Positions 12,132-20,095 of a DNA stretch of 43,147 nt are shown here, in pieces (positions within the stretch are counted from its first letter, which is position 1; the number at the start of each line of letters is the position of its first letter). A program made the position numbers and the translations under genes. The notes below the pieces were generated by a model. It had not been told where the DNA came from and did no database searches. It saw only the letters and a program-made list of their open reading frames with translations. Where the stretch lies: the NCBI GenBank assembly GCA_021323995.1, contig JAJPJY010000069.1, forward strand, positions 1 to 43,147. The letters run 5' to 3'. Source of the DNA: a bacterium (lineage in GTDB: Archaea > Thermoproteota > Bathyarchaeia > 40CM-2-53-6).

Positions 12132-14636
12132 ATGGGACGATTGCTCGCGACCCAGAAGAGATTACAGATTCTTATCTTGTTAGTAGCGGGCTCGCTGGTC
12201 GCTCTTGGAGCCACTCCGCAAGCTCACGCCATAGGCTATACTCTTACGACTAGTGTAGCCCGAACCCAGGAGTCAAACACGCCTGGAGTCGTCTTGACAC
12301 TCAATGTGACAGGGGCATCGGTCAGTACAACGTACAAGTTTACCTGGGTAGTTACCGATCCCACAAATCACAATGCGAACGCGGCGAACCAGACAACCAC
12401 TACGGCTACCCAGACGAGTTTCGTTTTGAGCGTCGACTATCCCTCTCAGTTCGGCGGAACAAACATCGACTACGTCGGTAATTACACGGTCAATGTTCAA
12501 GAAAACAATCCCGTCTCGATTCCAAGTGTTGCCACGGGACGTTTTCTTGTCGGACTAACCGATTCTATCTCATACGCGAGAACCTCTACGGCTTCGATCG
12601 TAGCGAGCGGCTACGCCAACAATTCGCCTGTGACTCTCAACATCTCCCACCAAGGATCACCCGCTCCTGGATATCCCAAAACGGTCACGGCAAGTCCTAC
12701 TGGAACCGTCTCAGCCGGTTGGGCCATACCTGCTAGCGTTCCTACGGGAATATGGTACGTGTCTCTCCTACCCGCGAAGAGCATTGCGGACAACCAGACC
12801 ATTACTATCCTCGCCGCAAACGTAACAATACCCAGGCTGAACATTGCGCAGGCAACACTACAGCGAATGCAGACCCAATCGTTTAGTTTTGACGCTAGTT
12901 ATCCAAACGGGTCATCTGTCCGTGTCGGTTCGGGCCAGATCACGATAACGGAATCAAATGGAACTACGTTGCCGCTTCAGGCAACTTACAATTCGACTCT
13001 CTCAGCCTTCAGCGTCCTGTACAGGGTCCCAATCAGTGCTCCGACAGGTGTTTGGACGGCCGCGATTCAATCGAATGCTTTCAACGACGGTTACGGAAAT
13101 CTGGGGCCGATAGCCATTCTGTCTGGTAGCTTTTCGATCGACGCGATTAACATCACGATCTCACAGCTGAACATTGGCCAAGTCTCTCTTGCTAGAACGC
13201 AGGCCCAAACGGTCAGTTTCAAGGCGACTTATCAAAATGGGATCCAGGTTCAGACGGGTTCAGCCCAAGTCACGATGACCGAGACTGATGGAACGACCTC
13301 CTTCTCAACCCAGGCTGTTTACAATTCCACTCTCGGGACATTCCATGCATCATACCGGATTCCTCCAGACAGTGAGACTGGAGCGTGGGTAGCTTCCATA
13401 GACGCGGATGCTTTCAATGATGGGTTCGGAAATCTTGGACCCTCAGCGAGCGTCGTGAGAGCCTTCACTGTTGTGGCTGCTAACCTGACCGTGTCCGCTT
13501 CTATTCCGGGCCAGACCTATACGCTGGGACAGGTCGTCCCGATTTACGCAATAATAGTATTCCCTGACGGCAGTCTATTCAGAAGCGGCAACGTCACCGC
13601 AGTCCTTTCATCCGCAACTGCGCAAATAGGAACAACAAGTCTAACGTTCGTGCCAGGTCAGTCGCAGTGGGTGGGCACTTACACTGTAAAGTCAGGCGAT
13701 CCTTCCGGGCTACTGCTCGTAACCCTGAAAGTTATCGATTCTTACGGCAACGGTGGCCAAGAAACTGTTTCCGCCATCATTAACGTTCCCCCTCCCGCGC
13801 CAGCTCAACAACCGCTAGATCTGTACTATTTCCTCTTGGCCGCTCTCGCAATAGGCTCCGGAGGATCAGGTCTCCTACTGGTCAGGAGGATCAATCCGAC
13901 CCATGGAGGCTTTGACGAATTCTTCAGACTGACCGGAGGAGAGATCCCAACGGGAACTACTCTCTTGATCCTAGGCGAGCCGGGTAGCGGCAGTAGCACT
14001 CTCACCCAAGAGCTGATTCATCACCAACTGGAGAAGGGAGGACGCTGCGGCCTGCTCACCTACGACGCGTTCCCATCAGAGGTCTCTCGCGCAATGAGAA
14101 GCTTCGGATGGGACCCGACTCTGAACCTGAGCGATGGGACATTCAAGATTCTAGACTGTTATTCGGCTCTGGCAGGGGCAGAAAACGCGCCCATCAGGGA
14201 TCCCGTTGATTTCACCGAAATAAGCATCCAGGTCAGCAGCATGATCGAAAAGGCCTCACCAAAGCCTCTGACTCTAGTAGTGGATTCGATCACTCCACTC
14301 TTCAACAGCGCACCATCCCGGACAGTCATTAACTTCCTCAGAGTAGTGAGTGCGAAGCTCAAAAGCAACAACGGCATCCTGATGCTTACCGCTGCCAAGG
14401 GCTCGATTCCGGAGGAAGTAAGATCAAACCTCGAGACCACTGTCGACGGTGTCGTGGACCTCAGTATAATTCACAGCGGGCAATCAGTGATCAGAAGATT
14501 GACCGTCAGTAGACTCGCAGGCAGGAAGATTTCTTCAGAGCCTACGGAATTCGACATTGTACCAGGCAAAGGCATACTGTTTAGAAAACTTCGGATTCCT
14601 CTAGGGATAATTTCGCCGAAGAGAAAGGCGGACTAG
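12132..14636 (+). CDS. Surface protein with Ig-like repeats, a TM helix and a degenerate KaiC/RAD55-like ATPase domain
   Basis: Signal peptide (..QAHA); Thr/Ser-rich beta domains with a tandem duplication of about 110 aa; TM YYFLLAALAIGSGGSGLLLV; then GGEIP.G..LLILGEPGSGSST, ILDCYS, VVDSI, DGVVDL. Confidence 0.85.
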   Translation: MGRLLATQKRLQILILLVAGSLVALGATPQAHAIGYTLTTSVARTQESNTPGVVLTLNVTGASVSTTYKFTWVVTDPTNHNANAANQTTTTATQTSFVLSVDYPSQFGGTNIDYVGNYTVNVQENNPVSIPSVATGRFLVGLTDSISYARTSTASIVASGYANNSPVTLNISHQGSPAPGYPKTVTASPTGTVSAGWAIPASVPTGIWYVSLLPAKSIADNQTITILAANVTIPRLNIAQATLQRMQTQSFSFDASYPNGSSVRVGSGQITITESNGTTLPLQATYNSTLSAFSVLYRVPISAPTGVWTAAIQSNAFNDGYGNLGPIAILSGSFSIDAINITISQLNIGQVSLARTQAQTVSFKATYQNGIQVQTGSAQVTMTETDGTTSFSTQAVYNSTLGTFHASYRIPPDSETGAWVASIDADAFNDGFGNLGPSASVVRAFTVVAANLTVSASIPGQTYTLGQVVPIYAIIVFPDGSLFRSGNVTAVLSSATAQIGTTSLTFVPGQSQWVGTYTVKSGDPSGLLLVTLKVIDSYGNGGQETVSAIINVPPPAPAQQPLDLYYFLLAALAIGSGGSGLLLVRRINPTHGGFDEFFRLTGGEIPTGTTLLILGEPGSGSSTLTQELIHHQLEKGGRCGLLTYDAFPSEVSRAMRSFGWDPTLNLSDGTFKILDCYSALAGAENAPIRDPVDFTEISIQVSSMIEKASPKPLTLVVDSITPLFNSAPSRTVINFLRVVSAKLKSNNGILMLTAAKGSIPEEVRSNLETTVDGVVDLSIIHSGQSVIRRLTVSRLAGRKISSEPTEFDIVPGKGILFRKLRIPLGIISPKRKAD

Positions 14637-15592: not shown

Positions 15593-15630
15593 TCAAAAAG
15601 GGAGATGGGTGTTCAGACTATTTCCCATCT
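15593..15630 (-). terminator. Hairpin plus T-tract terminator
   Basis: Minus strand AGATGGG..CCCATCT-CCC-TTTTT right after the stop of 15630..16181. Confidence 0.55.
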
Positions 15631-16181
15631 TACTTGGGTGTTACTGTCGCGCCTTGGATCTTCAGGAACCACAAGTGCGCTAGTTTGCTCTGTGGCATTC
15701 GGAAGTCTACGGTGAAAGCTGTGGTGGATGAGGCTTTGGCGTGGACACCGAAGAGTATCAGGTGGAATGTTTTGCCTGAGCTGTCCTTGACGACGAGGTG
15801 GAGTATCATCCTGTCGCTGTGGTAGGTGCTTATTCCATGCCCGCTGACAACAGTGTATGTGCTGCCGCCGCCTTCTACTGACCCAAGGGTCAATGTGCCG
15901 CCTGTGAAGTTGAGCATTCCCCGTCCTGGGGAGCTCTTGTCCACAGTGGCGGTGAGGCTGATAGTCGCGGATTCGGTCCTTGTCTTGTTTCCGATCTTGT
16001 AGGCCGTTCCTGACCCGCCTATCGTTAGAGTTGTGCCTTTGGCGATTGGTGGAACCTGATGATGGCCATGGTCTGAATGGTCCGCTGCGATTCCTGTCGG
16101 GAGTGCGCCGACGACTGGGACTACAATGCCGAGTGCTAGAGCTAGAGTCATTATTGTTCCGATCAGTGCCATTCTTCGCAT
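15630..16181 (-). CDS. Secreted hypothetical protein with His-rich N-terminus
   Basis: Signal peptide, DHSDHGHH, then a beta-rich domain. Confidence 0.7.
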   Translation of the reverse strand: MRRMALIGTIMTLALALGIVVPVVGALPTGIAADHSDHGHHQVPPIAKGTTLTIGGSGTAYKIGNKTRTESATISLTATVDKSSPGRGMLNFTGGTLTLGSVEGGGSTYTVVSGHGISTYHSDRMILHLVVKDSSGKTFHLILFGVHAKASSTTAFTVDFRMPQSKLAHLWFLKIQGATVTPK

Positions 16182-18205: not shown

Positions 18206-18465
18206 CTTCTGTTGGCGACTACTTGTTTTAGTTCGAGAACGAGATCGTTTACTCGCTCTCCCTTTCTCGAAGTGGCGACACAGTCTTCGACAATGTCTTC
18301 GATGATGACTTCAACTACGCTGTCAAGCGAGGCCCTGACTGCAGAAACTTGGTGCACAATTTCCGGATATGCTCTTTCCTCAACGAGCATCTTGCGAATA
18401 GAGCGCACGTGTCCCTCAATCCGTGCTAGCCTCTGATCGACCTCTGGGCGCTTGTGTCTGGACAT
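18202..18465 (-). CDS. CsoR/RcnR-family metal-sensing repressor
   Basis: RLARIEGHVRSIRKML..EIVHQVSAVRASL; overlaps the ATPase start. Confidence 0.85.
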   Translation of the reverse strand: MSRHKRPEVDQRLARIEGHVRSIRKMLVEERAYPEIVHQVSAVRASLDSVVEVIIEDIVEDCVATSRKGERVNDLVLELKQVVANRS

Positions 18466-18496
18466 ACCCCATCCCCGGGAGGGGGTTAACCTATAA
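18466..18496 (-). promoter_or_regulatory. G/C-tract palindromic operator and TATA box of the csoR-ATPase operon
   Basis: ACCCC-A-TCCC-C-GGGA-G-GGGGT (18466-18486) abuts the ATG; minus-strand TTATAG at 18496-18491, consistent with a leaderless mRNA. Confidence 0.7.
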
Positions 18497-18498
18497 CC

Positions 18499-20095
18499 CT
18501 ATTTCTTCTCGTCCAGGTCCTTTCTGACCTGTTCTTTTATGGTCTGGAAAAATTCCTGGTTCTCTATCCTTCCAGCTTCCGAGTGTACAGCGTCAAGGTC
18601 GATCTTTAGGCTCGTATGACTTACGCGGCGTCTTCTGAATACTAGGAGAGTTGCCAAGAGTAGGCCTGCGATTATCGCAGCGAATATTCCGAAGTAGAAG
18701 AGGGGAAAACTGGCTGAAGGGCTTCCTGTCGTAGTGCTAGTGTTTTGAATCGTAATCGCCCTGGTTGCGGTGCCGGAGTGGAGGATTGGAAGAGTCGGAA
18801 GCTGAGACGATCAGCGACCAGAGGCCGCCGGTGTCGCCTGACTTTGCTATATAGGTACCGACCCAATGGCCGAAGCTCGAATCATAGACGAGCGGAATTG
18901 TGTCATTGATTGCCGGGGTCCCGCTATAGACAAGATACGCTCGAGTTATCGCGGAAGGAACCATGGTTCCATCAGGATAGAGCACCGTCACATTGAACCC
19001 GAGTTGCTGACCAATCGCAATCACGGTATTCGTGCTCACAGTGACAGACAGGGTAGCCGTCGTCAGCCTAGGAGAATTCGTCAGCGTGGTCACAGGTCCA
19101 CTATTGCCATAAGCGTCGCTGTACCCATGTGCACCCATACTAGCCGTCCAGATGCCCGTCCGGTTGCTAACTGTGGTCTGATAGGTCGCGTTGAACGTCT
19201 GAGACGTGTCGTCGTAGGTTGCAGTGAGAGTAACTTTCCCACTGACAGGGTTTGTCAGAGTCATGAGTCCCACGCCGGTCGTCGGAATAGTTCCATCCGG
19301 ATAGATTGGCTGGAAACTGAACTGCATCGTGTCGGTTCTCTGATAGGTCGATTTCGAAGACCATATGGATGAGATCGACATGATTGCAACTCGCACTGCG
19401 AACGTCTCATTGTCAGGAGGAGACTTGTGAGTCGTCGTCCCTGTCAGGGTCGCTAGGTAATTGTCAATTGTAGCGTTCGGAGGAATCCTCCAGCTAGCCG
19501 TGACAACTCCCGTAAGCGACGCTGTCGTGGATGACGAGAAGACGATCGTTGAAGTTGTCTCGGTCTGTATTGTTACGTCTACTGTTTCGGAAGCGTTGTA
19601 GCCGCTCGCTTGCACGTTGACGGTCTGAGTTCTCTCGTACGAATTATTGTCAGTGCTGCTCAGCGAGAACGAGGTGCTAGCAACGTTCGGCATTGCGCTC
19701 GGCGCGAGCTGGTTGACCATAGCCATGTAAGTGCCGACGAGCGAATTAATCCCCGGGAATTGGGGACTAGTGTAGTTCACTATTACGCTGAACTGGGTCT
19801 GAGTAGAAGTAGTGGTATAGTTCATAGGTTGTGATTGAAACGTTGCCCCGGCCGGGTCTTTGACTATGAACCTAAACGAGTAAGTGGTGGAGCCTATCAC
19901 GACAATACCGAGAGTAACCGTTAGTACGAGTGATACGGGCGTTCCTTCTTCTGCAGTTGCTGGCAGCGCGGTCAGATTGTATGTATTGCCGCCGCTGCTC
20001 GGCGCATAGACCTTCGGAAGGCCCCAAAAGGAGAGCATTGAAGCGGTTACCAATATCAGTAAGATGGCTCGACCAATGCCCCGAGAAGACCGCAT
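18499..20095 (-). pseudogene. Ig-like surface protein, paralog of the 12132 extracellular region, frameshifted at about 18778
   Basis: Shared motifs (SYERT..V.ASGY, W.IP, YPDG, TG.W, D.YGN.GP, W.GTY); alternative frame continues SGTATRAITIQ..PLFYFGIFAAIIAGLLLATLLVFRRRR..DEKK* to TAG at 18499. Confidence 0.8.

Follow-up and report, generated by a model that had tools for sequence, protein, structure and literature searches.

KaiC-like ATPases have been proposed as the main signalling hubs of archaea. To our knowledge, two-component systems and receptor kinases are scarce in archaea, and we know of no route by which signals from outside reach the KaiC hubs. ArlH (FlaH) of the archaellum motor is a soluble protein that keeps its own Walker A lysine. 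The available part of PMC8978795 describes it as a KaiC-like single domain that does not hydrolyse ATP and works by regulated oligomerisation and by binding partners at the membrane. Archaeal signalling proteins with fused, inactivated KaiC domains (iKaiC) were described by Makarova, Galperin and Koonin in 2017, as cited in the available part of Galperin et al. 2018 (PMC5847659). The present analysis concerned one gene, at 12132..14636 (+), in a window of 43,147 nucleotides (the whole stretch of DNA that was analysed, contig JAJPJY010000069.1) from an uncultured soil Bathyarchaeia, whose own assembly is 2.0 Mb and 86% complete. Translation, profile searches and structure models indicated that the gene encodes a conserved type I surface protein, predicted to carry an array of macroglobulin-like (MG) domains outside the cell and, on the inner side, a KaiC fold that is complete yet catalytically disabled.

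The open reading frame (ORF list and translation) was uninterrupted and coded for 834 amino acids (aa) and a stop. An earlier reading of the DNA from its letters (the sequence-only reading) had described a signal peptide, about 530 aa of beta-sandwich-like domains, one transmembrane helix and a cytoplasmic KaiC-like domain, and each of these parts was recovered, from hydropathy, from five modelled domains over 528 aa and from a Pfam match. The layout is that of a single-pass receptor, with signal peptide, ectodomain, one transmembrane helix and a cytoplasmic effector domain. The full-length AlphaFold2 model, built from 16 homologues, had a mean predicted local distance difference test score (pLDDT) of 79.3 and showed five beta-sandwiches, a helix and a RecA-like alpha/beta domain. 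The features of the gene are as follows.

12132..14636 (+), whole gene, predicted type I single-pass membrane protein (translation; homologues with the same architecture)
12132..12230 (+), predicted signal peptide, aa 1-33, with an AHA|IG cleavage-type site (hydropathy, basic n-region, model helix 4-26; cleavage site read from the sequence)
12231..12554 (+), MG-like beta-sandwich domain a, aa 34-141 (AlphaFold2 model, pLDDT 80-90; Foldseek matches to C3/C5 MG arrays)
12570..12812 (+), MG-like domain b, aa 147-227 (AlphaFold2 model; Foldseek)
12837..13142 (+), MG-like domain c, aa 236-337, tandem duplicate of d, missing in the P0015-17 branch of homologues (identity to d; alignment gap)
13152..13475 (+), MG-like domain d, aa 341-448, with the best Pfam MG2 stretch at 359-424 (Pfam; AlphaFold2 model)
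13488..13784 (+), MG-like domain e, aa 453-551 (AlphaFold2 model; Foldseek)
13815..13883 (+), predicted transmembrane helix, aa 562-584, LDLYYFLLAALAIGSGGSGLLLV, followed by RR (Kyte-Doolittle 1.85 at 566-584; kept in 16/16 homologues)
13908..14579 (+), predicted cytoplasmic KaiC/RecA-like domain, aa 593-816, also above the DUF7504 threshold (PF06745, E 4e-24; PF24336, E 4.1e-12; model; Foldseek)
13974..14000 (+), degenerate P-loop GEPGSGSST, aa 615-623, Lys replaced by Ser (alignment to KaiC)
14061..14075 (+), YDAFP, aa 644-648, against FEESP in KaiC; the first acid stays D/E and the second Glu is gone (alignment)
14271..14294 (+), Walker B strand TLVVDSIT, aa 714-721, with Asp718 invariant (alignment)
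14511..14522 (+), RLAG, aa 794-797, against K-x-R-G in KaiC; the Arg finger is A/S/T/G in the family (alignment)

Pfam KaiC (PF06745) matched aa 593-816 with 85.7 bits against a cut-off of 26.6, and Pfam DUF7504 (PF24336) matched aa 608-777 with 47.4 bits against a cut-off of 27. By sequence, the KaiC structure 8zn5_B was matched at E 1.2e-21. Modelled alone from a 28-sequence alignment, the cytoplasmic domain reached a pLDDT of 93.5 and a predicted template modelling score (pTM) of 0.89, and Foldseek aligned this model with PH0284 (template modelling score, TM-score, 0.84), KaiC-CI (TM-score 0.80-0.83, root-mean-square deviation 2.6-3.1) and SSO2452 (TM-score 0.84, deviation 2.6). A profile of the subfamily matched KaiC structures at E 5.5e-74, PH0284 at 1.4e-48, ArlH/FlaH at 5.6e-20 and RadA at 8.6e-11. 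The NCBIfam models thermo_KaiC_1, ArlH, FlaH and circadian KaiC all matched far below their own cut-offs, and the domain is therefore a member of the superfamily but of none of these named equivalogs. A circadian KaiC has tandem CI-CII domains where the target has one, and its model TIGR02655 gave 31.7 bits against a cut-off of 546; the ArlH model gave 59.9 bits against 215, and no arl or type IV filament operon was found at the locus.

The HMMER alignment to KaiC paired GEPGSGSST with GTPGTGKTV, TYDAFP with TFEESP, LVVDSIT with VVIDSIT and RLAG with KFRG, in agreement with the three motif losses named by the sequence-only reading (a Lys-less Walker A, YDA in place of EE, and RLAG in place of KMRG). 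The Walker A lysine, the second catalytic glutamate and the Arg finger were replaced, while the Gly-rich loop, the Ser/Thr after the lost lysine, the first acidic residue and the Walker B aspartate were retained. Against the general motifs of the superfamily, the Walker A pattern GxxxxGK[ST], the EE glutamates and the K-x-R-G Arg finger were absent and the Walker B pattern hhhhD was present; the catalytic glutamate site reads D-A in the target and D/E then A/S in the family. Since the lysine, the second glutamate and the Arg finger are all gone, the KaiC-like domain is predicted to be no longer able to hydrolyse ATP, and probably it no longer binds ATP productively.

A check of orthologues for a kept GK[ST] had been named beforehand as able to separate a fixed change from local decay. 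None of the 16 fused homologues (43-100% identity, from a search of 5.8 billion proteins) kept this motif; their lysine position held S/T/I/M/A and their arginine position A/S/T/G in every case. The lysine was likewise absent from all 12 relatives examined among the 13 loci found in species-representative genomes, the remaining locus (L042) being a fragment without the P-loop. In a pooled and partly redundant set of 40 members, 37 P-loops were parsed and none had K or R at the lysine position, where S/T/I/M/A/V/N occurred; two unparsed members (P0014 and L038) were also Lys-less and one (P0050) was truncated. The KaiC-like domain and the juxtamembrane segment were the best conserved part of the protein, with a mean pairwise identity of 0.67 against 0.51-0.60 for the five MG domains. 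Because the loss of the lysine is family-wide and the KaiC-like domain is the best conserved part, the domain is taken as a fixed pseudo-ATPase and not as a product of decay, and the alignments indicate that the change in the catalytic motifs is fixed and under selection. The pseudo-ATPase assignment of the sequence-only reading is thus well supported. As in iKaiC, a KaiC fold was present with disrupted catalytic motifs conserved as such; the linkage to an active KaiC that is also expected of iKaiC was not seen, no KaiC gene being adjacent or syntenic at the locus; active KaiC paralogues are encoded at other places in the genome.

Topology was assessed from hydropathy, the positive-inside rule and the bias of N-glycosylation sequons. 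The protein had just two strongly hydrophobic stretches, aa 11-29 (Kyte-Doolittle 2.01), which has a basic n-region before it and the AHA|IG site after it, and aa 566-584 (1.85). Fourteen sequons were counted in aa 34-561 (2.65 per 100 aa) against one in aa 585-834 (0.4 per 100 aa), and the same five- to six-fold bias towards the ectodomain was found in 16/16 homologues. The ectodomain contained no cysteine and the cytoplasmic domain two. All three kinds of evidence point to a type I protein whose KaiC-like domain lies in the cytoplasm, from which we infer the orientation; the opposite placement of this domain, outside the membrane, had been named beforehand as the result that would count against a receptor, and the topology evidence points away from it. 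The surface protein is probably N-glycosylated.

The ectodomain, aa 34-561 (528 aa), was modelled as five beta-sandwich domains with a pLDDT of about 90. Pfam MG2 matched it in three stretches (E 6.7e-11, 42.9 bits, cut-off 32.8), and Foldseek showed a resemblance to the serial MG domains of complement C3/C5, CD109, A2ML1, TEP1 and A2M (best E 1.7e-20 over about 600 columns). The TM-scores of these matches were low (0.13-0.18) because the repeat fold is common to them and the arrangement is not. Domains c and d were 50% identical (E 6e-39), and this tandem duplication was absent, as an alignment gap, from the P0015-17 branch. The model showed nothing outside the membrane beyond the five beta-sandwiches, and the Pfam scan of the protein, taken to E of 1, contained no thioester, bait-region, CUB, receptor-binding or anaphylatoxin family.

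A loop motif, FNDG[YF]GN.GP, was observed at the matching place in MG-c and MG-d, at about 13077-13109 and 13407-13439 (aa 316-326 and 426-436). D430, G431, G436 and P437 of this loop were invariant across homologues and the motif was also present in paralogues; the ectodomain may use this loop to bind a ligand or a metal.

The ectodomain belongs to a multigene family, with one to nine matches in each of the 22 genomes of the genus (22/22). Many of these relatives (P0018-P0036, and two copies in this genome) had the MG array, a transmembrane helix and inside the membrane only a short, charged, conserved helix of the type ..K[IL]D[LV]..FFQS[IV]..QLKK, in a wider form ..[RK]..VTH..[LV]K[IL]D[LV]..FF/FLQS[IV]..QLKK. 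The two KaiC-less MG-array paralogues of this genome are located as follows.

contig C155:33423-35042 (+), MG-array paralogue without a KaiC domain
contig C171:7-2172 (+), MG-array paralogue without a KaiC domain

Because many paralogues carry the ectodomain without a KaiC domain, the ectodomain has some function that is independent of KaiC. The short helix may be a docking motif for some cytoplasmic partner. By reading of its sequence, the C171 paralogue had two further, PKD-like repeat domains. Another paralogue of the target ectodomain was observed in the window itself at 18737..20095 (-), with 452 aa, 34% identity (E 7e-38) and no Pfam match. Its frame stops just past the last MG domain, and a transmembrane helix and conserved tail (..LKIDLDAVHSEAGRIENQEFFQTIKEQV..) lie in another frame at about 18300..18740 (-), so that this copy reads as frameshifted, either a pseudogene or an assembly error.

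In the own assembly of the host, the KaiC model gave 29 matches, 27 of them above the cut-off, which correspond to about 27 ORFs, four of these membrane-anchored. Eight (K01-K08) looked canonical, with GK[ST], a glutamate at the second catalytic position except in K07 (EQ), and K-M/A-R at the Arg-finger site. A divergent subfamily marked by YD.FP comprised the soluble K09 (253 aa, GSGKT) and, with related ectodomains, the target and the anchored K10 (contig C173; 669 aa, GSGKT, KMERR) and K13 (658 aa, P-loop SDSGAGSTT). A further anchored KaiC, K11, carried GSGKT and K-L-R and was convergent (tail-to-tail) with a canonical soluble KaiC across a gap of 6 bp.

contig C162:16779-17516 (+), canonical soluble KaiC K06, 245 aa, this genome
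contig C162:17523-19292 (-), anchored KaiC K11, 589 aa, this genome (locus L046)

Tandem pairs of an intact and a Lys-less KaiC occurred twice, as K01 (GAGKT) with K21 (no P-loop) at contig C88:37892-39470 (+) and as K03 (GCGKT) with K12 (GEADTGMTT, KMPG) at contig C128:76-1687 (-). From the sister genomes the 20 strongest cytoplasmic-domain matches were taken and 16 were parsed; ten were K10-like with GSGKT (ten genomes), four were Lys-less, one had stops in the P-loop and one was cut by a contig end. Every genome that yielded a Lys-less copy, intact or not, also held a K10-like copy, and a K10-like, Lys-bearing anchored paralogue was present in every genome of the genus examined. The copy with P-loop-region stops (L053, G099:C8:18659-19700), which fall in the frame that bears the remainder of its KaiC-like domain, was a close relative of the target with 60% identity in the cytoplasmic part and 47% in the ectodomain, these two parts lying in separate open frames of 207 and 653 aa, respectively; the gene may be broken in that sister genome.

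When the cytoplasmic domain was searched with phmmer against 1.84 billion representatives, 1491 matches were obtained at E up to 0.001, of which 51 were at E up to 1e-30. The best 150 proteins supplied 133 domains aligned over at least 200 columns. More than half of these (74/133) were anchored, with an N-terminal stretch longer than 100 aa and a hydrophobic helix (Kyte-Doolittle at least 1.8) within 70 residues upstream, while 37 had short N-termini (some are probably fragments) and 22 were unclear, 12 of them with a weaker hydrophobic segment. The anchored domains kept the lysine in 62 and the Arg finger in 50 of the 74 cases. In a FastTree phylogeny of the 133 domains, the Lys-less relatives of the target formed one clade of 15 leaves (representative clusters), whose sister was a GK[ST]-bearing, Arg-less group (K10/K09-like); parsimony gave 6 changes of the lysine state over the whole tree, rooted at its midpoint. 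A Pfam scan of 43 anchored representatives found KaiC in all 43, with ectodomains recognised as PKD (usually with CARDB) in 20, CarboxypepD_reg in 9, MG2 in 6 (five below the cut-off) and CARDB alone in 2, and not recognised in 6. Sensor domains such as PAS, Cache or CHASE were not found in these 43 relatives by Pfam at E up to 1e-4.

A cytoplasmic-domain match with an E of 1e-20 or lower was present in 47/201 genomes sampled from the class, namely in 10/10 genomes of the genus, in most families of the same order and in only 3 genomes elsewhere in the class. The named relatives were metagenome-assembled genomes of soil Bathyarchaeia/Bathyarchaeota. In this genome DUF7504 gave 11 matches, of which 8 exceeded the cut-off; among 14 control genomes it gave a match in Haloferax volcanii only. 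The automatic names of database entries were 'KaiC/GvpD/RAD55 family RecA-like ATPase', 'archaeal flagellar protein FlaH' and 'KaiC/DUF7125/DUF7504/MG2 domain-containing protein'. Look-ups in the ESM Atlas returned generic archaeal KaiC clusters only; the named clusters closest to a PKD-type representative were those of Bathyarchaeota KaiC/DUF7504/MG2 proteins, at scores <0.9 that make them leads only.

As for the neighbourhood, an M20 peptidase gene lies upstream of the target across a gap of 212 bp, and a convergent MIP aquaporin gene lies downstream, followed by P-type ATPase and CLC channel genes. Between the aquaporin and P-type ATPase genes, a 183-aa ORF at 15630..16181 (-) was observed, with no Pfam family, a hydrophobic N-terminus and a sequence rich in Gly, Thr and His. 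At other loci of the family, the K13-like L033-L040, genes for FEN1, DNA ligase, a diphthamide synthase-family protein and an amidohydrolase were shared, and this synteny reflects relatedness and not linkage.

In the favoured reading, the five MG-like domains would project outward from the cell surface and one transmembrane helix would link them to the cytoplasmic KaiC/RecA-fold domain, which would serve as a non-enzymatic docking or oligomerisation module. An event at the ectodomain (binding of a macromolecule, a surface or a neighbouring cell, or clustering) would in this way be coupled to cytoplasmic proteins of KaiC type, whether soluble or membrane-anchored, in a mode likened to that of a receptor pseudokinase beside active receptor kinases. 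The Lys-bearing anchored K10 and the soluble K09 (contig C111) of the same subfamily would be candidate partners in this genome. The dead and active KaiC pairs K01/K21 and K03/K12 and the position of the anchored K11 beside the soluble K06 speak for this reading. The receptor-pseudokinase analogy of the sequence-only reading, in which the protein would relay surface signals by oligomerising with active KaiC/RAD55 partners, is plausible and partly supported. It is strengthened by probably active proteins of this receptor-like architecture, some of them encoded in this genome; it held less well in that no partner adjoins the gene, no classical sensor domain was seen and the ectodomain also occurs without KaiC. 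Taken as a whole, a dead domain kept for binding or assembly and linking a surface protein to KaiC-type partners is a reading to which about even credence is given.

Several observations weigh against it. The same ectodomain was found in many paralogues that have a short cytoplasmic helix in place of the KaiC domain, and the recognisable ectodomains of the 43 anchored relatives were all of beta-sandwich type (MG2, PKD, CARDB, CarboxypepD_reg, Ig-type), which would fit adhesins or envelope proteins equally. No partner gene stands beside the target, its neighbours in the window being unrelated; no neighbour is common to this locus and that of a 63%-identical orthologue (L030); and K09, K10 and K13 likewise sit among housekeeping genes. 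The K10-like proteins also lack the second glutamate and the Arg finger (YDAFP, KMERR) and may not be active enzymes either. The counts of coexisting dead and Lys-bearing copies come from close kin of one genus and are hence not independent support, and a search of sequencing runs gave no expression data, its sole match being a soil metagenome DNA run.

The main rival makes the protein a surface adhesin or envelope protein without signalling, in which the MG domains would attach to particles, polymers or cells or form part of the envelope, and the dead KaiC-like domain would be an anchor or an oligomerisation plug that sets how many copies assemble, how they are spaced or where they sit, doing what the short conserved helix of the paralogues may do. 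It would suit a multigene ectodomain family with one to nine matches in every genome of the genus, many of its members having only a transmembrane helix and a short conserved tail, as well as the beta-sandwich-only recognisable ectodomains and missing sensor domains of the 43 relatives, the lack of a signalling gene adjoining the target and a repeat number that varies through the MG-c/d duplication. A mere anchor, however, would not need a complete RecA fold of 225 aa that is better conserved than the ectodomain; the wider class mostly keeps the Walker A lysine and the Arg finger, implying an activity that depends on nucleotide and is coupled to the surface part, and one anchored member (K11) is paired with a canonical soluble KaiC. 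This rival is regarded as possible but on the unlikely side. A non-hydrolysing switch that still holds ATP or another phosphate ligand, with occupancy gating oligomerisation, would draw on the conserved GxxGxG, the following [ST][TM] and Asp718, only the lysine position drifting, and on ArlH, which in the available part of PMC8978795 binds ATP without hydrolysis and so controls assembly. The lysine position is unconstrained (S/T/I/M/A/V/N), hence no substitute phosphate-binding side chain stands there; the Arg finger and catalytic glutamate were lost along with the lysine, and some members of the clade lack the glycines too (EDPSTGANT, SDSGAGSTT, ARKDEDATA). ArlH, for its part, retains the lysine. 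Such a switch is considered improbable.

Two further explanations were weighed and rejected. A membrane-tethered protease trap or defence protein of the alpha-2-macroglobulin kind is suggested by the best structure matches of the ectodomain (MG arrays of C3/C5, CD109, A2ML1 and TEP1) and by Pfam MG2; yet the target has the MG array alone, the thioester, bait, CUB and receptor-binding families being absent from the Pfam scan and the thioester, bait and CUB modules from the model as well, and the TM-scores of 0.13-0.18 reflect only a common repeat fold, which makes this function very improbable. That a KaiC ATPase gene is degenerating locally, as the three lost catalytic motifs and the frameshifted ectodomain paralogue nearby might hint, is scarcely credible: the reading frame is intact, the KaiC-like domain is the most conserved part of the protein, and the same losses were found in all homologues down to 43% identity.

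A broader proposal is that the target belongs to a large undescribed class of single-pass 'receptor KaiC' proteins in Bathyarchaeia and probably other archaea, each with a beta-sandwich ectodomain, one transmembrane helix and, inside, an ATPase/autokinase domain of KaiC type. Such proteins would be to archaea what receptor kinases are to eukaryotes, and would supply the transmembrane input that is missing from the proposed KaiC hubs. One clade of them, with the target in it, would have turned into obligate pseudo-enzymes that heteromerise with Lys-bearing paralogues, anchored or soluble, from the same genome. In this full form the proposal is speculative and rather unlikely to hold. In the full texts searched, an incomplete corpus that did not include the primary 2017 paper on archaeal KaiC families, no description of an ectodomain-transmembrane-KaiC protein or of DUF7504 was found. 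The family joins a surface repeat array to a KaiC fold and may be how such archaea connect the surface to KaiC-type signalling. With active-looking and dead members in one genome it offers concrete, expressible candidates, and their small, confidently folded cytoplasmic domains make in vitro work possible although the organisms are uncultured. The Lys-less clade would be a clear natural example of a P-loop domain that has been retained for a role other than catalysis.

Compared with eukaryotic receptor pseudokinases, as these are commonly understood, the target is alike by analogy in its signal peptide, Ig-like repeats, single transmembrane helix and dead cytoplasmic enzyme domain, and here too the genomes concerned also encode active-looking paralogues that are built in the same way; the folds are unrelated, the target being RecA-like and not a protein kinase. 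With C3/C5 and the alpha-2-macroglobulins it shares the serial string of MG-type beta-sandwiches, but it is without their thioester, bait, CUB or anaphylatoxin modules and is membrane-anchored and joined to a KaiC-like domain. The anchored K11 of the same Bathyarchaeia genome is like it in overall architecture and in its DUF7504-positive KaiC subfamily; K11 retains GSGKT and K-x-R, and a canonical soluble KaiC is encoded on the other strand at a distance of 6 bp, whereas the target lacks the lysine, the arginine and such a neighbour.

With KaiC-CI, PH0284 (2dr3) and SSO2452 (2w0m) the target shares the RecA-like fold over the whole domain and the Walker B aspartate. It differs from them in that its single domain is tethered to the membrane behind a 528-aa ectodomain, has lost the lysine, the second glutamate and the Arg finger, and bears the subfamily signatures YD.FP and DCYS together with a DUF7504 match above threshold. 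Like ArlH, as far as the available part of PMC8978795 describes it, the target is a single-domain KaiC-like protein and is proposed, by analogy, to act without hydrolysis; its family profile is far weaker against ArlH structures (5.6e-20) than against KaiC (5.5e-74), and it is not in an arl or pilus operon. As with the iKaiC proteins in the available part of PMC5847659, a KaiC fold with disrupted motifs is fused to other modules in a KaiC-rich genome (about 27 ORFs) that also holds active and dead tandem KaiC pairs. The fusions given in that part are cytoplasmic (REC, HalOD1), whereas the target is linked through the membrane to an extracellular array and has no adjacent active KaiC. Because the 2017 KaiC-family paper and its supplements may already list anchored forms, the protein is classed as a variant among the KaiC-like and iKaiC signalling proteins and not as categorically new.

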